Below, piece by piece: positions 3,884 through 21,671 of a stretch of DNA of 64,000 bases. How positions within the stretch are numbered: the stretch's first letter is position 1; the number at the start of each line of letters is the position of its first letter. Under the pieces are notes generated by a model, which saw only the letters and a list, made by a program, of their open reading frames with translations, had not been told where the DNA came from and did no database searches. The stretch lies in contig DASUPK010000050.1 in the NCBI GenBank assembly GCA_036276255.1, forward strand, positions 26,093-90,092, written 5' to 3'. Origin of the DNA: Solirubrobacterales bacterium. GTDB taxonomy: Bacteria > Actinomycetota > Thermoleophilia > Solirubrobacterales > 70-9. Both the position numbers and the translations under genes were made by a program.

Positions 3884-4795
3884 CTAGTCGGTCTCGAGCT
3901 CGCCGAGGTCGGGCAGCTTCTGCTTGGTGGAGAGCACCGGCTCGAACAGGTCGCCCTCCTTCTCGATCCGCTTGATCGCGGCCGGAATCTCGAAACGGAG
4001 TCTCTCGGCGCTCTTCTTGTTCTTTGCCGCCCGCTCGACCTCCCGCCAATGCAGCGGGATCGACACCGTCGGGTACTCGCGGGCCCGCAGCGAGTACACG
4101 GCGATCGTCGTCTTCTTCTGGTGGTTCTGGCTCCAGTCGACGAAGACCTTGCCGCGCCGATCGACCTTGGCCATCTTGGAGACGACCTCCTTCGGAGTCT
4201 GCTTCTCGAGCAGCTGGGCGACTGCCTTGGCGAACGGGCTCGTCTGCTCGTACGTCACCTTGGTGTTGAGCGGGAAGTAGACCTGCAGGCCCTTGCCGCC
4301 CGAGACCTTCGGGAACCCCTCGAGTCCGAACGCGTTGAATAGCTCCCTGACCCGCAGGGCGACCTTGCAGCACTCGACCAGGCCCGCGGGCTCGCCGGGG
4401 TCGAGGTCGAAGGCGAGCACCGTCGGCTGCTCCATGCGCTTCGATTTGGAGAGCGAGGGGTGGAGCTCCAGCGCCGCGAGCTGGGCCATCCAGATCAGCG
4501 TGGGGCGGTTCTCGCAGAGGCAGAAGTCGATCTCACCGGCGCGGCGATCGACGTAGATCGGGGTCGTCTTCACCCATTCGGGCCGATGCTTCGGGCAGTT
4601 CTTCTCGAAGAACGACGTCTGCGGCTTGCCCACTCCCTCGGGGAAGCGGCGGAGGGTCAGCGGCCGGCCCTTCAGGTGCGGAATGAGCAGGTCCGCGACC
4701 CGGGCGTAGTAGTCGATCACCTCCGCCTTGGTCGTCTTGGTCTTCGGGTAGAGGACCTTGTCGAGGTTGGTCAGCTTGACCTTGCGCCGACCAAT
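3884..4795 (-). CDS. ligD: NHEJ polymerase/primase (LigD PolDom, archaeo-eukaryotic primase fold), stand-alone
   Basis: ORF track 3884..4720. Motifs FDLDP and SGGKGLQVY are AEP catalytic motifs. The conserved N-terminal segment IGRRKVKLTNLDKVLYPKTKTTKAEVIDYY continues in frame upstream of GTG 4720 with no ATG/GTG/TTG. I place the start at in-frame ATT 4795. The canonical alternative is GTG 4720. Confidence 0.85.
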   Translation of the reverse strand: MGRRKVKLTNLDKVLYPKTKTTKAEVIDYYARVADLLIPHLKGRPLTLRRFPEGVGKPQTSFFEKNCPKHRPEWVKTTPIYVDRRAGEIDFCLCENRPTLIWMAQLAALELHPSLSKSKRMEQPTVLAFDLDPGEPAGLVECCKVALRVRELFNAFGLEGFPKVSGGKGLQVYFPLNTKVTYEQTSPFAKAVAQLLEKQTPKEVVSKMAKVDRRGKVFVDWSQNHQKKTTIAVYSLRAREYPTVSIPLHWREVERAAKNKKSAERLRFEIPAAIKRIEKEGDLFEPVLSTKQKLPDLGELETD

Positions 4796-15207: not shown

Positions 15208-15903
15208 ATGAGGCTCGCCAAGTACCTCGCCCACGCCGGTGTCGCATCCCGCCGGGCCGCGGAGGGCCTGATCGCTGCCGGCGAGGTTCGCGTGGGTGGT
15301 CAGGTCGTGACCGACCCGGCGCGGGACGTTGGGGAGGGCTCGGATGTGCGGGTGGGCGGCCGAGCCGTCGCCCCCGAGCCCCGGGAGGTCTGGGCGGTCA
15401 ACAAGCCCGCCGGCGTGGTGTCGACGGCGCGCGAGCCGGGGCCGCGCCGCGCGGTCACGGAGCTGGTTGCCTCCGAGCGGCGGCTCTACCCGGTCGGCCG
15501 CCTCGACGCCGACTCGACCGGGCTGATCCTGCTCACCAACGATGGGGAGCTGGCGAACCGGCTCACCCATCCGCGCTACGGCGTGCCGAAGACCTACCGC
15601 GTTCGCCTCGTCCGTCCGCCGTCTGACGCCGATCTGGACCGGCTGCGCAGGGGTGTCCGGCTCCAGGATGGGCCGACGGCTCCGGCCGATGTCGGCCGCC
15701 GCGGAGAGCGCGAGATCGAGGTGACCATCAGGGAGGGGCGCAAGCGACAGGTGCGCCGCATGGCCGAGGCCGTCGGCAACGAGGTCGAGTGGCTCAGGCG
15801 CGTCAGGATCGGCGCCCTGGAGCTCGGGGACCTCCGCCAGGGCGAGGCCAGGAGGCTCGAGGAGGGGGAGGTCGCTGCGCTCTGGGAAGATTCCGCGTCA
15901 TGA
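15208..15903 (+). CDS. rluB: pseudouridine synthase, RsuA/RluB family
   Basis: 231 aa. S4 domain MRLAKYLAHAGVASRR. Catalytic GRLDADSTGLILLTNDG. Confidence 0.88.
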   Translation: MRLAKYLAHAGVASRRAAEGLIAAGEVRVGGQVVTDPARDVGEGSDVRVGGRAVAPEPREVWAVNKPAGVVSTAREPGPRRAVTELVASERRLYPVGRLDADSTGLILLTNDGELANRLTHPRYGVPKTYRVRLVRPPSDADLDRLRRGVRLQDGPTAPADVGRRGEREIEVTIREGRKRQVRRMAEAVGNEVEWLRRVRIGALELGDLRQGEARRLEEGEVAALWEDSAS

Positions 15904-16274
15904 GCGATGAGAGGCTGTGGGCGGTTCGCGGCGCCACCAAGGCGCCAAGCAACAACCCGGACACGATCGTCGAGGCGACCGAGGAGTTGATGACGGAGCT
16001 GATGGCCCGCAACGACCTCTCGATCGACCGGATGGTGAGCTGCATCTTCACGTCGACCCATGATCTGAACGCCGAGTTCCCGGCGGTCGCGGCCCGCAAG
16101 CTCGGGCTCGACAGCGTGCCGCTGCTCTGCGCCCAGGAGATCGACGTGCCGAACGGGATGCGGTCGGTGATCCGCGTGCTGCTGCACTACTACGGGCCGG
16201 CCGACCACACGCCGGCGCACGCCTACCTCGGCGAGGCTCAGGAGCTTCGCTTCGACCTGAAGGCGGCCCAGTAG
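15900..16274 (+). CDS. aroH: chorismate mutase, AroH class
   Basis: ATG 15900 (ATGA overlap with rluB) within ORF 15789..16274. LWAVRGAT...N....I...T.EL and SCIFTSTHDLNAEFPA match the B. subtilis AroH-type CM pattern. Confidence 0.87.
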   Translation: MSDERLWAVRGATKAPSNNPDTIVEATEELMTELMARNDLSIDRMVSCIFTSTHDLNAEFPAVAARKLGLDSVPLLCAQEIDVPNGMRSVIRVLLHYYGPADHTPAHAYLGEAQELRFDLKAAQ

Positions 16275-16363
16275 CTCCCCAGGTTCGCGAGGCCGCCCCG
16301 GACGACACCGAGGCGATCGTCTCGGTCACCGTCGCGGGCTGGCGGAGCGGCTACCGCAACATC

Positions 16364-16789
16364 GTGGCCCCGGACCGCCTCGCCGACCTTCCGGTCGATC
16401 GCTGGCGCCACGAGGTCGGCGTCGGGTTGCGGAGGCCGGTCGCCGACGCGTTCACCTACATCGCAGAGCTGGACGGCGGCTTCGTGGGCTATTGCTACGT
16501 GGCGGCTCCATCGCTGGAGGCCGACCTCGGCCCGGATGTGGCGGATCTGGTCGCGATGTACGTGGATCCGGACCACTGGCGGGAGGGGGTGGGAAACGCC
16601 CTGATGAACGCGGCGTTCGAGCGGCTGGCCGAGCTGTCCTACGAGGAGGCGGTGCTCTGGACGTTCAAGGAGAACGGCCGCGCCATCGCGTTCTACGAGC
16701 GCCACGGCTGGCGCCCCGACGGCTCCGAGAAGATCCACGCGCGAACGGGTGAGCCGGCGGTCCGGTACCGCCGTCCCGTAACAATGTGA
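16364..16789 (+). CDS. GNAT family N-acetyltransferase (true start probably upstream, near 16283)
   Basis: 141 aa from GTG 16364. Acetyl-CoA motif REGVGNALMNAA. A typical GNAT beta1/alpha1 segment (VREAAPDDTEAIVSVTVAGWRSGYRNI) continues in frame upstream to 16274 without a canonical start codon. Confidence 0.75.
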   Translation: MAPDRLADLPVDRWRHEVGVGLRRPVADAFTYIAELDGGFVGYCYVAAPSLEADLGPDVADLVAMYVDPDHWREGVGNALMNAAFERLAELSYEEAVLWTFKENGRAIAFYERHGWRPDGSEKIHARTGEPAVRYRRPVTM

Positions 16790-16793
16790 GCCG

Positions 16794-17888
16794 ATGACCG
16801 TCACGTTTGCCGAGAAGCTCTCGCGGATCCCCCACTACGAGCCGGGGACCTCGCTAGACGACGCCAAGGCCAAGGCGGAGACGGCCGACGCGGTCAAGCT
16901 CGCCTCGAACGAGTCTCCCTTCCCGCCCCATCCCGATGTGGTGGACGCCGTGTCCCGGGCGGCCGCGGAATCGAATCGCTATCCGGACCCCGAGGCCCGC
17001 GCCCTCCGCCGGGCGATCGCCGACCACCACGAGACCGATCCGGCTCGGATCGCGGTCTCGAACGGCTCCTGCGAGATTCTCCTCGCCGCCTCGCTCGCCC
17101 TCTGCGAGCCAGGCGACGAGATCCTCTATGCCTGGCCGTCCTTCTCGATGTATCCGCATCTGCCGGCGCTCTCGGGGGCGCGGGAGATCCGCGTGCCGCT
17201 GGCCGAGGGTTACGTACACGACCTCGACGCCATGCTCGAGGAGGTCACCGCGGCGACCCAGTTGCTGATCGTCTGCAACCCCAACAACCCGACAGGTACG
17301 CACCTGCCGGCGGAGCGCATCGGCGCCTTCGTCGAGAGCGTCCCGTCGCGGACCACGATCATCCTCGACGAGGCCTACGTCGAGTACCAGACCAATGACG
17401 ACCCGGACACGACGGTCGACCTGCTGGCCAAGCACCCGAACGTCGTCCTGCTTCGGACGTTCAGCAAGACCCACGGCCTCGCTGGGATGCGCGTCGGCTA
17501 TGCGCTCTGCTCGCCGCAGTTCAGGACAGCGGTCGACGCCGTTCGCCAGCCGTTCAGCGTGAACGCGCTCGCGCAGGCGGCGGCGGCCGAGGCGATCCGC
17601 CATCAGGACGACGTGGCCGACCGCGTCGAGAAGAACCTGATCGAGCGCGTCTTCGTCGAGGACGCCCTGCAGGAGCTGGGCTTCGCGACTGCGGAGTCCG
17701 AGACCAACTTCGCCTGGATCGAGCTGGGCGACCTCGACGAGGGGGAGGTGGTCGCGGCCCTGAGCAGGGCCGGCGTCGCGGTCAGGCCCGGCACTCCGCT
17801 TGGGGGCCCGGGCTGCCTGCGGGTCACCTATGGCACCCGCGCCGAGAACGAGCGCTTCCTCGCCGCGTTGCGCGAGATCGCGGGCTGA
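16794..17888 (+). CDS. hisC: histidinol-phosphate/aromatic aminotransferase (class II PLP aminotransferase)
   Basis: 364 aa. KLASNESP, NPNNPTG, and PLP-lysine motif RTFSKTHGLAGMRVGY. Confidence 0.88.
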   Translation: MTVTFAEKLSRIPHYEPGTSLDDAKAKAETADAVKLASNESPFPPHPDVVDAVSRAAAESNRYPDPEARALRRAIADHHETDPARIAVSNGSCEILLAASLALCEPGDEILYAWPSFSMYPHLPALSGAREIRVPLAEGYVHDLDAMLEEVTAATQLLIVCNPNNPTGTHLPAERIGAFVESVPSRTTIILDEAYVEYQTNDDPDTTVDLLAKHPNVVLLRTFSKTHGLAGMRVGYALCSPQFRTAVDAVRQPFSVNALAQAAAAEAIRHQDDVADRVEKNLIERVFVEDALQELGFATAESETNFAWIELGDLDEGEVVAALSRAGVAVRPGTPLGGPGCLRVTYGTRAENERFLAALREIAG

Positions 17889-17920
17889 ATCCTTCGACTT
17901 CGCCTGTGACGTCTGCTTCA

Positions 17921-18016
17921 ATGTCCGTAATGCAGCACCGCGCACACATCGCTTCACCCACGAGCCGCTTCGCGGCTCGCACGCGCGCGTATTTCTACTT
18001 TTGGCGATTTACCTAG
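17921..18016 (+). promoter_or_regulatory. candidate attenuator leader-peptide ORF rich in aromatic codons (MSVMQHRAHIASPTSRFAARTRAYFYFWRFT*)
   Basis: Hand translation: ATG 17921 (or in-frame ATG 17930) to TAG 18014-18016. Codons 17990-18010 read TAT TTC TAC TTT TGG CGA TTT. Lies in the 278-nt low-GC spacer directly upstream of DAHP synthase and is flanked by two near-identical hairpins. Confidence 0.5.
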
Positions 18017-18166
18017 GCGTCCGGCCCGCGGCTGCCATTAGCCGCTGACGCAGAAGCACCACTCGCCGGGCGCCGCTCCACCCGAAGTGGCGTGCAGGAA
18101 CGCCGCCGCGCGGTGATCCAGACCCCAAGGACCGTCGCCAGACCAGTAGAAAGAAGGAGCCTCAGG

Positions 18167-19261
18167 ATGAATTTCAAGATGAAGGAGCTACCGAGAAAGC
18201 AGTCGGACCGCGTCCGCGACCAGCGGATCGAGCGGGTCGTCGAGCTGGTCTCGCCGGCCGAGATCCTCGAGGACCTGCCGCTGGGGCCGAAGCGAGAGGA
18301 CGCCGTCGTCGGGCACCGCGCCGAGGTCAAGGCGGTCCTCGACCGGGAGGACGACCGCCTGATGGTCGTGGTCGGCCCGTGCAGCGTGCACGACCCCGAA
18401 GCGGCGATGGACTACGCGCAGCGGCTCAGCGCCCGGGCGGCCGACCTGCGCGACGACCTCTGCATCGCAATGCGCACCTACTTCGAGAAGCCCCGCACCA
18501 CGACGGGGTGGAAGGGCCTGATCAACGACCCGCACCTGGACGACTCGCGGGACGTCAACTACGGCCTGCACACTGCCCGTCGCCTGCTGCTCGAGGTCAC
18601 CGACCTCGGCCTGGCCGTTGGCTGCGAGTTCCTCGACCCGATCACCCCGCAGTACATCTCTGACGTGGTGGCCTGGGGCGCGATCGGCGCTCGCACCACC
18701 GAGAGCCAGATCCACCGCCAGCTCGCCTCCGGCCTCTCCATGCCCGTCGGCTTCAAGAACGGCACCGCCGGCAGCGTCAAGCTGGCCGTCGACGCCGTCC
18801 GCGCGGCCGCGGGGCCCCACGCCTTCGCGGGCGTGGACGTGAGCGGCACCCCGGCGATCCTCTACACGGAGGGCAATCCCGATTGCCACGTGATCCTGCG
18901 GGGCGGCAAGGGTGCCCCGAACTACGACGCCGAGAGCGTCGGCGGAGCTCTCGAGCAGCTCGCCGACGCCGGCCTGCAGGAGCGGATCGTCGTCGACGCC
19001 TCCCACGACAACAGTGGCAAGGACCACGAGCGCCAGCCGCAGGTGGTGAGCGAGATCGCCGATCAGATCGCCGGCGGCGATGGAGCCATCGTCGGAGTGA
19101 TGATGGAGTCGTTCCTCGTTGCCGGCCGCCAGGACCTCGAGTCCGATGGGGACCTGATCTACGGGCAGTCGATCACCGACGCCTGCATGGACTGGGACAC
19201 GACCGTTCTGACCCTGGACCGGCTCGCCTCGGCGGTGCGAAAGCGCCGCGAAGCCGGCTGA
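18167..19261 (+). CDS. aroG: 3-deoxy-7-phosphoheptulonate (DAHP) synthase, class I
   Basis: ATG 18167 is preceded by AAGGAG (7-nt spacer) within ORF 18092..19261. GPCSVHD, KPRTTTGWKGLINDP, GARTTESQIHR and ILRGG motifs. Confidence 0.92.
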   Translation: MNFKMKELPRKQSDRVRDQRIERVVELVSPAEILEDLPLGPKREDAVVGHRAEVKAVLDREDDRLMVVVGPCSVHDPEAAMDYAQRLSARAADLRDDLCIAMRTYFEKPRTTTGWKGLINDPHLDDSRDVNYGLHTARRLLLEVTDLGLAVGCEFLDPITPQYISDVVAWGAIGARTTESQIHRQLASGLSMPVGFKNGTAGSVKLAVDAVRAAAGPHAFAGVDVSGTPAILYTEGNPDCHVILRGGKGAPNYDAESVGGALEQLADAGLQERIVVDASHDNSGKDHERQPQVVSEIADQIAGGDGAIVGVMMESFLVAGRQDLESDGDLIYGQSITDACMDWDTTVLTLDRLASAVRKRREAG

Positions 19262-19275
19262 CCTAGGTTCTGCCC

Positions 19276-20352
19276 ATGAAGATCGCCGTCCTCGGCGTGG
19301 GGCTGATCGGTGGATCGATCGGGCTCGCCGCCCGCGCCAGACTCGACGCCGAGGTCGCCGGGTTCGATCCCGACCGGGAGCTGCTCGACCGGGCGACCGA
19401 GCTCGGGGCGATCGATGCGGCGCATGACTCGGTCGCGTCGGCCGTCCAAGGCGCGGAGCTGGTGTTCTGCGCCGCCCCGGTACTCGCCCTCCCCGGCCTA
19501 GCGGCAGAGGCGCTCGACGCATCCGGAGAGGATTGCGCCGTGACCGACGTGGGCTCGGTGAAGCGCGACGTGATCACCACTCTCGGATCCGACAGCCGCT
19601 TCATCGGCGGGCATCCGCTGGCGGGGGCGGAGACCTCCGGCGTGGAGAGCGCTCGGGCCGATCTCTTCGAGGGCGCCCGCTGGTACCTGACCCCGACTTC
19701 CACCACCGGCGGCGTGCTCTACGACCGCGTGCAGCGGGCCATCGCGGACATCGGGGCGCGCCCACAGGCGATCGAGGCGGAAACCCACGACCGCCTGATG
19801 GCGTCGATCAGCCACCTGCCTCACGTGGTGGCGAACGTCCTGGTGACGCAGGCGGCGACGGCGCTCAGCGAGGAGGCCGAGCACCTGCCGGAGGTGGGGC
19901 CGAGCTTCCGCGACGCCACCCGGGTCGCCGGGGCCAACCCCGCGATCTGGGGCGACATCTTCGCCGGGAACCGGGAGGCCGTCGCGGCCGAGATCGACGC
20001 CGCCGTGGCCCGGCTGACCGAGGCGGCCGAGCTGATCCGCTCGGGTGAGCGGGAGGCTGTCGCGAGCTGGCATGAGCAGGCCGGCCGCCACCGTCGGGAG
20101 CTGATCGAGGCCGAGATCGCCGGAGGGCCCCTCCATGAGCTGAGGGTGCTGGTGCCGAACCGCCCGGGGATCGTGGCCGAGATCGCGCTGGAGCTCGGCC
20201 GCGCGGGCGTCAACATCGAGGACATGGCTCTCTATCCCGCAGCGGACATGACCTCCGGCGCGGTCTCGCTCTACGTCGCAGGCGAGGAGGAGACCGAGCG
20301 GGCAGAGCGCCTGGTGCGCGAGCTCGGCCACGACGTCTCGCGCGCGGAATGA
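19276..20352 (+). CDS. tyrA: prephenate dehydrogenase with C-terminal ACT domain
   Basis: 358 aa. Rossmann motif IAVLGVGLIGGS, plus GGHPLAG and SHLPH. The C-terminal ~70 aa is ACT-like (LRVLVPNRPGIVAEIALELG). Confidence 0.9.
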   Translation: MKIAVLGVGLIGGSIGLAARARLDAEVAGFDPDRELLDRATELGAIDAAHDSVASAVQGAELVFCAAPVLALPGLAAEALDASGEDCAVTDVGSVKRDVITTLGSDSRFIGGHPLAGAETSGVESARADLFEGARWYLTPTSTTGGVLYDRVQRAIADIGARPQAIEAETHDRLMASISHLPHVVANVLVTQAATALSEEAEHLPEVGPSFRDATRVAGANPAIWGDIFAGNREAVAAEIDAAVARLTEAAELIRSGEREAVASWHEQAGRHRRELIEAEIAGGPLHELRVLVPNRPGIVAEIALELGRAGVNIEDMALYPAADMTSGAVSLYVAGEEETERAERLVRELGHDVSRAE

Positions 20353-21671
20353 CGCGGTTCGATCCCGCCGGCCCACTGCGCGGCGAGCTGCGCCCGCCGC
20401 CTGACAAGTCGGTCACCCACCGCGCGGCGCTGATCGGCGCGATGGCGGATGGCCCGACCCGCGTCACCGGTTACCTCGACTCCGAGGACACCCGGGCGAC
20501 GCTGCGGGCGGTCGCCGCCGTCGGCGCCGAGGTTCGCGAGGGCGACGCGGACGATCACGGAGGGTTCTTCGTCGAGATCGAGGGAGTCGGCCTGAGCGGA
20601 GCGCGTCCGGGCGCGATCGACGTCGGCAACGCCGGCACGCTGCTTCGGATCATGCCCGGATGGCTCGCGGGCCAGCCGGAGGGCGAGTGGACCTTCGACG
20701 GCGACGATTCGATCCGGCGGCGTCCGGTCGATCGGATAGCCGACCCTCTGCGGCTGATGGGCGCGGATGTCGAGTGCCGCGACGGGCGCCTCCCACCGCT
20801 GCGAGTGCGCGGTACGCGTCTCCGCGGCATCGACTACGAGATGCCGATCGCAAGCGCCCAGGTGAAGTCCTGCCTGTTGCTGGCCGGGCTGCTGGCGGAG
20901 GGTGAGACGGCCATCCACGAGCCGATCGGAACCCGGGACCACACGGAGCGGATGCTGGCCGCGATGGGCGCTTCCCTGCGCCGCGAGGGCCACGTCCTGA
21001 TCATCTCCCCGTCCGAGCGCCTGGAGGCGGGGGACGTTCCGGTGCCGGGAGATTTCTCCTCGGCTGCCTTCTTCGTCGCCGGCGCGCTGCTGGTGCCGGG
21101 CAGCGAGGTCGCGCTGCGCGAGGTCGGGATCAACCGCAACCGGATCGGGCTGCTCTCGATCCTCTCCCGCATGGGGGTTGAGATGGGCGGAGCGCACGAG
21201 GACGGAAGGGCGATGACGGTGGACGAGATCCGTGAGCCGGGCCCTGAGCCGATTGCGACCCTGCACGTGCGGGGCGCGTCGCTGCATGGGGCCGAGGTGA
21301 CGGCGGCCGACGTCCCGGCGGCGATCGACGAGCTTCCGCTGCTCGCCCTGCTCGCATGCTTCGCAGAGGGGGAGACGGTCGTCGGGGGCGCGCAGGAGCT
21401 GCGGGCGAAGGAGTCCGATCGGATCAGCGGGGTGGTCGAGGGGCTGTCGGGGCTCGGCGCCGACATCGAGGCGCGCCCGGACGGGTTCGCGGTCCGCGGG
21501 ACCGGTGGCCTGCGGGGCGGCACGATCGACGCCCGGGGCGATCACCGCCTTGCGATGGTCGGCGCGATCGCGGGCTTGGCGTCCGAGGATGGTGTCGAGG
21601 TGGACGGCTTCGATGCCGTCGCGGTCAGCTATCCGCGCTTCGAGCGCGACCTGAGGGCGCTACTCGCCTGA
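20349..21671 (+). CDS. aroA: 3-phosphoshikimate 1-carboxyvinyltransferase (EPSP synthase)
   Basis: 440 aa. PPDKSVTHRA, LDSEDTRATL, LRAKESDR, DHRLAM. ATGA overlap with tyrA. Confidence 0.95.
   Translation: MTRFDPAGPLRGELRPPPDKSVTHRAALIGAMADGPTRVTGYLDSEDTRATLRAVAAVGAEVREGDADDHGGFFVEIEGVGLSGARPGAIDVGNAGTLLRIMPGWLAGQPEGEWTFDGDDSIRRRPVDRIADPLRLMGADVECRDGRLPPLRVRGTRLRGIDYEMPIASAQVKSCLLLAGLLAEGETAIHEPIGTRDHTERMLAAMGASLRREGHVLIISPSERLEAGDVPVPGDFSSAAFFVAGALLVPGSEVALREVGINRNRIGLLSILSRMGVEMGGAHEDGRAMTVDEIREPGPEPIATLHVRGASLHGAEVTAADVPAAIDELPLLALLACFAEGETVVGGAQELRAKESDRISGVVEGLSGLGADIEARPDGFAVRGTGGLRGGTIDARGDHRLAMVGAIAGLASEDGVEVDGFDAVAVSYPRFERDLRALLA

Follow-up and report, generated by a model that had tools for sequence, protein, structure and literature searches.

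Does the short, aromatic-rich open reading frame (ORF) that precedes a DAHP synthase gene in this Solirubrobacterales genome control the genes behind it, and by which route? The window, i.e. the whole stretch of 64,000 nucleotides that was analysed, had been given a preliminary description in which this ORF, placed in a low-GC spacer between hisC and aroG-tyrA-aroA, was proposed to be a ribosome-mediated attenuator. NCBIfam and Pfam matches confirmed the flanking genes. A pseudouridine synthase gene (15208-15903) comes first and is followed by genes encoding an AroH-type chorismate mutase (15789-16274), a GNAT acetyltransferase (16364-16789) and a hisC-like aminotransferase (16794-17888), then by the spacer, by aroG, tyrA and aroA (Table 1) and, after aroA, by cmk and der. 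The GC content of the spacer (0.57-0.65) is indeed lower than that of its flanks (about 0.70), and the leader ORF lies 150 nt upstream of aroG-tyrA-aroA. The closest relatives of the DAHP synthase, at 87-96% identity, belong to uncultured Solirubrobacterales MAGs, which places the window in this order (Thermoleophilia, Actinomycetota).

The CM_1 chorismate mutase, GNAT acetyltransferase and hisC-like aminotransferase genes (15789-17888) stand on the same strand directly upstream of the leader, and the region can therefore be regarded as a supercluster for aromatic amino acids, in the middle of which the leader promoter sits. At one related locus, L005, the aminotransferase gene abuts the DAHP synthase gene, and spacer and leader are both missing.

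Table 1. Position of the leader, of its predicted RNA elements and of the genes behind it in the window, together with leaders from other actinomycete orders.
Feature	Sequence	Position or location	Strand	Basis
-35-like hexamer	TTCGAC	17893-17898	+	comparison of related leaders
Extended -10 element	TGC TTCAAT	17914-17922 (TGC 17914-17916; -10 17917-17922)	+	comparison
Leader ORF, probably leaderless	MQHRAHIASPTSRFAARTRAYFYFWRFT	17930-18016 (stop TAG 18014-18016)	+	translation, conserved start
Candidate regulatory codons (Y F Y F W R F)	TAT TTC TAC TTT TGG CGA TTT	17990-18010	+	
Near-invariant core	TGGCGATTTAnCTAGGCG	18002-18019	+	alignment A3, 25 Solirubrobacterales-type sequences
Hairpin P1		5' arm 18016-18025, 3' arm 18065-18074, inner hairpin 18028-18045	+	folds, covariation
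Complement of aromatic-codon tract	AGG, TCGCCA, AGTAGAAA	18128-18152 (18128-18130, 18135-18140, 18145-18152)	+	MFE, RNAalifold
aroG Shine-Dalgarno	AAGGAG	18154-18159	+	
aroG start	ATG	18167-18169	+	
aroG, type I-alpha DAHP synthase (aroFGH-type)		18167-19261	+	NCBIfam TIGR00034
tyrA, prephenate dehydrogenase		19276-20352	+	NCBIfam NF005107
aroA, EPSP synthase		20349-21671	+	NCBIfam TIGR01356
Regulated genes of the proposed attenuator (aroG-tyrA-aroA)		18167-21671	+	
Mycobacterium, Mycolicibacterium leader	VNIGVRAYWRFIVAPGG..	5' of DAHP synthase		
Nocardia leader	MQRVYFWFSQPAPGG..	5' of DAHP synthase		
Micromonospora, Plantactinospora leader	VTRSYRWFSQPA..	5' of DAHP synthase		
Trebonia, Streptosporangiaceae leader	VSRWYWRFTTAPGG..	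5' of DAHP synthase		

Translation of positions 17921-18016 of the plus strand yielded MSVMQHRAHIASPTSRFAARTRAYFYFWRFT followed by a stop codon. The last eight sense codons are TAT TTC TAC TTT TGG CGA TTT ACC, ahead of TAG (18014-18016), and six of these eight specify Tyr, Phe or Trp, as the preliminary description had it. When all six frames were considered, runs with at least six aromatic codons in eight occurred at two places only in the 64 kb window. The binomial expectation for such runs is 0.0036 per 64 kb window and one of 100 first-order Markov simulations yielded one, so that the run was rightly called unlikely by chance. The reading of the ORF as a chance open frame in an intergenic spacer can appeal to the frequency of short open frames in high-GC DNA; the low expectation for the aromatic run speaks against it and the conservation over dozens of loci in several orders, presented below, refutes it, which makes it practically untenable. 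Two codons of the run and its stop codon are infrequent in this DNA: TTT represents 4.7% of the Phe codons and CGA 3.7% of the Arg codons in seven genes of the window, and TAG ends none of the seven window genes checked.

The other run with at least six aromatic codons in eight, VVFFWWFWLQ (4107-4130, plus strand), lies inside a minus-strand ORF (3884-4720) of 278 amino acids (MIDYYARVADLLIPHLKGRPLTLRRFPEGV...) that has, by eye, the look of a LigD-type polymerase domain. As a second leader it was rejected and attributed to chance, being antisense to this long ORF.

Under strict sigma-70 criteria, a scan of the spacer gave no consensus promoter, and it gave no terminator on the plus strand; the promoter was detected by comparison of leaders only. 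In 20 related leaders, the -10 hexamer is preceded at a distance of about 18 nt by a conserved TT(C)GAC, TTGAC or TTGCC, and the element TGnTAnAAn, or TGCTTCAAT in the group of the window, is found 6-12 nt upstream of the first in-frame ATG or GTG in 20 of 23 leaders. The gap between the -10 element and ATG 17930 is 7 nt in the window. Two starts, ATG 17921 and ATG 17930, had been offered for the ORF; because ATG 17921 shares bases with the conserved -10 element (17917-17922), it is disfavoured, and translation probably begins at ATG 17930, giving a peptide of 28 amino acids. Since the promoter motif is conserved at a short distance from the start codon, the mRNA is probably leaderless or nearly so, with transcription starting at or beside ATG 17930.

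The recurrence of the aromatic run in relatives, named in the preliminary description as a check on its proposal, was observed at 12 genome loci and on 11 metagenome contigs of the Solirubrobacterales type, which all carry, upstream of DAHP synthase, a short ORF with an aromatic-rich tract and the ending W-R-F-x-stop. The leaders of L001-L004, L018 and L023 end in AYFYFWRF[TPSI] before the stop codon, and the distant Solirubrobacterales loci L006, L012, L014, L024, L027 and L032 display the endings ...SYWRFS, ...AYSFWRFL, ...WFTPYWRFS, ...YFAWRFI and ...VYFTWRFI, again followed by the stop codon. A covariance model built on the leader region, R1, gave exactly one match in the window and added L026 and L063, in which the element is followed by a type I-beta-like DAHP synthase gene and then by a I-alpha gene. 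The metagenome instances were gained by scanning for the core and then filtering with R1; all 11 leaders end in W-R-F-[ST]-TAG and precede type I-alpha or I-beta DAHP synthase genes.

Among the 23 leaders, aromatic residues occupy 70 of 207 places (34%) in the nine positions before WRF as against 8 of 346 (2.3%) in the N-terminal parts, which are unalignable between lineages. This enrichment of about 15-fold is maintained though the number, the position and the synonymous form of the aromatic codons vary. The leaders measure 21-32 codons, and the open frame and the position of its start are kept while the N-terminal sequence is not. A variable N-terminus joined to an aromatic-rich C-terminus is the signature of a regulatory leader peptide and not of a functional small protein. 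The locus thus presents what is expected of a leader-peptide attenuator, namely a short ORF upstream of a biosynthetic operon in which codons for the end products are enriched and conserved.

Two peculiarities were observed in the genes behind these leaders. In L012 (about 2320-2390) and L027 (about 2895-2970), the aromatic leader is separated from the DAHP synthase gene by a second small ORF, which has its own Shine-Dalgarno sequence and meets the start of the DAHP synthase gene, by a GTGA overlap in L012 and by TGACGATG in L027; this arrangement suggests that translational coupling adds a further layer. The type I-alpha DAHP synthases behind the leader (window, L006, L090, L121, L156 and L158) carry an N-terminal extension, MMIGME.., MFIGME.. 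or MIIGMR.., and MNFKMKE.. in the window (18167-18200). This extension is similar to MMIVMK, the native start of the type I-beta enzymes that the same leader precedes at other loci (L097, L106, L120, L139, L142, L147). Either the gene could have been replaced while the initiation region was retained, or the first codons could be under selection as part of the regulatory RNA.

Conservation is strongest at the end of the leader. In alignment A3 (25 sequences), the core TGGCGATTTAnCTAGGCG is invariant or nearly so, synonymous positions included, and remains so past the stop codon. The string UGG CGA UUU x UAG is invariant at synonymous sites in the 25 sequences though CGA and UUU are rare, and UUU is also kept in the leaders of other actinomycete orders; slow decoding of rare codons is a possibility behind this invariance. 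The core runs into hairpin P1, which opens with the stop-codon G. The P1 cells are paired in 99.6% of cases in the 25 sequences, compared with 36-49% in slid controls, and changes of both partners occur in 8 cells, which belong to two pairs; the pairing test was also made on 13 sequences. In other orders, a P1-like helix begins 1-5 nt after UUUA and has a lineage-specific sequence, and the leader stop codon lies inside its loop.

An invariance that covers synonymous positions (CGA, UUU) and runs past the stop codon, next to a hairpin that covaries, is what would be expected if UGGCGAUUUAnCUAGGCG and P1 formed a structured RNA element, either a riboswitch or a protein-binding site, that acted independently of translation and in which the ORF were incidental. 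We consider this highly improbable. Although the N-terminal sequence and the length (21-32 codons) vary, the ORF begins at a constant distance from the promoter and its frame is kept open, and the aromatic codons are enriched 15-fold whatever their number, position and synonymous form. Moreover, no relevant covariance-model match to Phe_leader, Trp_leader, T-box or any other Rfam family was obtained on 17700-18400 at E values up to 10, nor on ten related loci at gathering scores, and the homologous-looking system of C. glutamicum depends on Phe-tRNA.

The same end of the leader could be read as a nascent-peptide or termination-pause module of the TnaC kind, in which W-R-F-x-stop would respond to free aromatic amino acids and not to tRNA charging. 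The invariance of WRF, the rare codons before the stop and the stable hairpin exactly at the stop codon are in keeping with such a module. However, the upstream aromatic codons vary as hungry-codon sensing predicts, and the stop does not appear to be required since the ORF runs 8-15 codons beyond W(R)F in other orders. We know of no arrest motif of the W-R-F-x-stop kind, and we hold this reading to be very unlikely.

How sensing in the leader could reach aroG is suggested by pairings predicted between the aromatic-codon tract and the aroG initiation region. The tract segment TTTCTACT (17992-17999) pairs with AGTAGAAA (18145-18152), the complement ending 1 nt upstream of the Shine-Dalgarno sequence; TGGCGA (18002-18007) pairs with TCGCCA (18135-18140), and CCT (18012-18014) with AGG (18128-18130). 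In the minimum free energy structure, this pairing closes one long stem with P1 at its top, and the fold of the 286-nt spacer is more stable than shuffles (z = -2.8). The RNAalifold consensus of seven near relatives keeps the long-range helix in all seven. There, 97.5% of the cells are paired, with one-sided G-U changes only; compensatory changes are absent because neither strand of the helix varies appreciably between these close relatives. The duplex energy in near relatives beats that of control windows or shuffled tracts with p values of 0.003-0.09, and for the complement at 18128-18152 the p values against controls are 0.005-0.06.

Independent lineages possess complements of their own: CUGGACCUGG:CCAGGUCCAG at -10..-1 in L106, CCUUUCU:AGAAAGG in L158, and CUUCUCCUA:UAGGAGAAG, which is the Shine-Dalgarno sequence itself, in L097 and L120. 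With a wider window and shuffled-tract controls, the pairing of the tract with the initiation region was supported in about half of the lineages, and in about half (L006, L014, L024, L027, L121/L156, L090, L131) complementarity above background was not found. With a lineage grouping of our own, at most one shuffle in 24 was as good as the native tract in 6 of about 15 lineages, i.e. a binomial p of about 7e-4 at an assumed chance rate of 8%. The idea that aromatic codons act as a general anti-Shine-Dalgarno across Actinomycetota was tried and, in this form, rejected, as the duplexes with the narrow window -28..+6 were no better than those with random windows or swapped RBSs.

A stalled ribosome was simulated by masking the aromatic tract, and the predicted accessibility of positions -20..+10 of aroG was used as the readout. 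Masking the tract raised this accessibility from 0.43 to 0.60 in the window, compared with 0.43 for a control mask on the early ORF and 0.45 for a mask on the stop codon. Accessibility also rose with the tract mask relative to the control mask in the mean over 23 leaders (Wilcoxon p 0.0035, the sequences being related and not independent). The Shine-Dalgarno hexamer itself changes little in the window, its unpaired probability being about 0.5 in all states, and the main change is located in -39..-14.

Taken together, these results make it probable that a leader-peptide attenuator sensing aromatic amino acids controls the DAHP synthase-tyrA-aroA cluster through occlusion of the aroG initiation region. 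In the scheme that we favour, the conserved promoter would start transcription at or beside ATG 17930 and deliver a leaderless mRNA, and the 28-codon leader would be translated, its final codons Y F Y F W R F T serving as the sensor. When Tyr-, Phe- and Trp-tRNAs are charged and plentiful, the ribosome would reach UAG at the foot of P1 and leave. The vacated tract (17992-18014) could then pair with 18128-18152, just upstream of the aroG Shine-Dalgarno sequence, closing a long stem with P1 stacked on top that would hinder 30S binding at aroG, an effect that may be strengthened by Rho polarity or by decay of the RNA. When an aromatic aminoacyl-tRNA is scarce, the ribosome would stall on the tract, leaving it unpaired with its partner, and aroG would be translated. 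The ORF, its conservation, its aromatic enrichment, the promoter motif, the covariation of P1, the complementarity and the absence of a terminator are computed features; from them we infer leaderless initiation, stalling, and the direction and the level (translation) of control. The attenuation model leaves the synonymous-site invariance of UGG CGA UUU unaccounted for, and P1 is only a scaffold in it.

The assignment of the output to translation depends on the terminator question. No hairpin followed by a T-run is present between the leader stop and the DAHP synthase start in the window spacer, nor in 23 of 24 Solirubrobacterales-type spacers, and the window spacer has no U-run terminator hairpin that could alternate with an antiterminator. 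As this lineage lacks an intrinsic terminator, control is probably exerted on translation or through Rho and not by termination of the pheL/trpL type. Of the attenuator first proposed from the sequence, the ribosome-mediated sensing is supported by the conservation of the leader and its aromatic enrichment in relatives, while pheL/trpL-type termination is unlikely. P1 was considered as a terminator and rejected: it is not followed by a U-run, and a fast ribosome would destroy it, so that abundant amino acids would turn the operon on. A classical 3:4 partner for the P1 3' arm was also sought. The sole candidate, GCGCCGCU:AGUGGCGU (18067-18097), was rejected; the candidate partner region, 18088-18099, is deleted in the near relatives L002, L004, L003 and L018.

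A serious rival nevertheless keeps the same stalling sensor and places the output in transcription termination, which would occur through Rho in the C-rich, untranslated spacer of 150 nt or else at an unusual terminator devoid of a U-run, with P1 as an antiterminator-like structure that would form only when the ribosome lags. Several observations are consistent with it. A ribosome at the UAG of the window would cover the whole P1 5' arm, the spacer downstream of P1 is richer in C than in G, and a short transcript of 154 nt exists in C. glutamicum. In the leaders of other orders, the stop codon is enclosed by the loop of the P1-like helix; the 3' arm of that helix overlaps a terminator stem in Nocardia, and canonical hairpin plus U-run terminators occur in the Micromonosporaceae and Mycobacterium relatives. 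Yet no terminator-like site was found in the window spacer, and no conserved alternative partner of the P1 3' arm was found, the only candidate (18088-18099) being deleted in four near relatives. We thus regard a transcriptional output as rather unlikely here, and retain occlusion of the aroG initiation region as the preferred reading.

The leader is not restricted to Solirubrobacterales. Leaders with a YWRF/YFWF kernel occur in other actinomycete orders, among them Mycobacteriales, Micromonosporales and Streptosporangiales (Table 1; also Rhodococcus, Prescottella and Pseudonocardia), and always precede a DAHP synthase gene, either type I-alpha or type I-beta; R1 reaches Mycolicibacterium loci at E values of about 1e-3. 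No leader of this type was seen at the Chloroflexota, Myxococcota, Verrucomicrobiota and Gemmatimonadota loci of the same set. Together with the Rfam searches, this comparison of sequences suggests that the leader is part of an actinobacterial family that appears to be uncatalogued.

Some individual loci of the set deserve mention. Outside the Actinomycetota, small frames upstream of the DAHP synthase gene in L043 (2627-2728, Verrucomicrobium sp., ..GIFYFYRPFNF..) and L072 (about 2860-2960, Dasania, ..VYFLFFNFQ..) could be independent aromatic leaders or chance; runs like that of L043 are absent from the other Verrucomicrobiota loci of the set. In L029 (from 2845) and L031 (from 2840), of Streptosporangiaceae and Trebonia, no stop codon interrupts the leader frame over 370-1230 nt, so that it enters the DAHP synthase gene out of frame with the latter; the leader frame of the sister locus L033 stops after 48 nt.

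A bolder reading joins these data. UGG-CGA-UUU-x-UAG and P1 would constitute a programmed slow-termination or nascent-peptide pause that sets the time during which each ribosome holds the aroG initiation region open, within an uncatalogued, phylum-wide actinobacterial 'aro leader' family with interchangeable outputs. We find this reading unlikely; if it were true, one shared sensor, made of aromatic codons and a P1-like helix, would be connected to a terminator output in Micromonospora and Mycobacterium and to initiation-site occlusion in Solirubrobacterales.

The sequence comparisons support a more sober conclusion, namely that the leader is probably a ribosome-mediated attenuator of a known type, encountered here in the little-studied Thermoleophilia, and involves no new principle. 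For this class, a soil lineage known almost only through metagenomes, it would be a concrete element regulating the step at which aromatic amino-acid synthesis is entered. An aromatic leader hitherto represented by one experimental case, aroR of C. glutamicum, looks to be part of a wider actinobacterial family absent from RNA-family databases. This matters for genome annotation, because such mini-ORFs are never called, and for metabolic engineering of the shikimate pathway, and it bears on how one conserved sensor may be used with different outputs, transcription termination or blocked translation initiation.

Regulation of DAHP synthase is best known from other arrangements. In E. coli the enzyme is controlled by the TyrR and TrpR repressors (PMC11802643), and a 2005 comparative study of actinobacterial attenuators leaves aro genes unmentioned (PMC1262725). 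Our literature searches found no description of such an aro leader outside Corynebacterium, and nothing relevant on the motifs YWRF, YFWF and FYFWRF. The enterobacterial pheL-pheA and trpL-trp leaders (Rfam Phe_leader and Trp_leader) similarly encode peptides rich in the regulated amino acids. They differ in being led by a Shine-Dalgarno sequence, in possessing a 3:4 hairpin plus U-run terminator and in their targets, pheA or trp, whereas DAHP synthase is the putative target here.

The Corynebacterium aro leader that the preliminary description had mentioned does exist. According to PMC11802643 (citing Neshat et al. 2014) and PMC7356990, the aroR leader of C. glutamicum, with its Phe-Tyr-Phe motif, attenuates aroF, transcription of which rises at limiting Phe-tRNA; the aroR-aroF attenuator had been predicted in PMC4046766, the supplement of which lists the leader ORF cg4017 as leaderless, 78 nt long and carried on a 154-nt short transcript. 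The likeness to the leader of the window is one of description (gene context, size, leaderless start, motif) and not of sequence alignment. Both are leaderless ORFs of about 25 codons (78 nt there, 87 nt or 28 codons here, where the leaderless status comes from the promoter motif) with a Phe/Tyr motif, F-Y-F there and Y-F-Y-F-W-R-F here, and in both actinobacterial hosts the next gene encodes a type I-alpha DAHP synthase. In C. glutamicum, however, control is described as transcription attenuation with the 154-nt short transcript, whereas no terminator is detectable here, and the leader of the window also contains Trp and the invariant WRF-stop followed by hairpin P1.

With regard to the output, the closest parallel is the polycysteine sORF Ms5788A of Mycobacterium smegmatis, a leaderless ORF of 90 nt whose 3' Cys tract pairs with the peri-Shine-Dalgarno region and acts without termination, a mechanism proven with mutants and compensatory changes (bioRxiv 10.1101/834739). 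The window likewise has a probably leaderless sORF of about 90 nt with its regulatory codons at the 3' end, a tract (17992-18014) complementary to a region (18128-18152) just before the next gene and beside its Shine-Dalgarno sequence, and, as in Ms5788A, a structured spacer of about 100-150 nt devoid of a terminator. The two differ in the signal, Cys being sensed in M. smegmatis and aromatic amino acids putatively in the window, and in the reach of the helix, which pairs the Shine-Dalgarno sequence itself in Ms5788A and is predicted to end beside it here.
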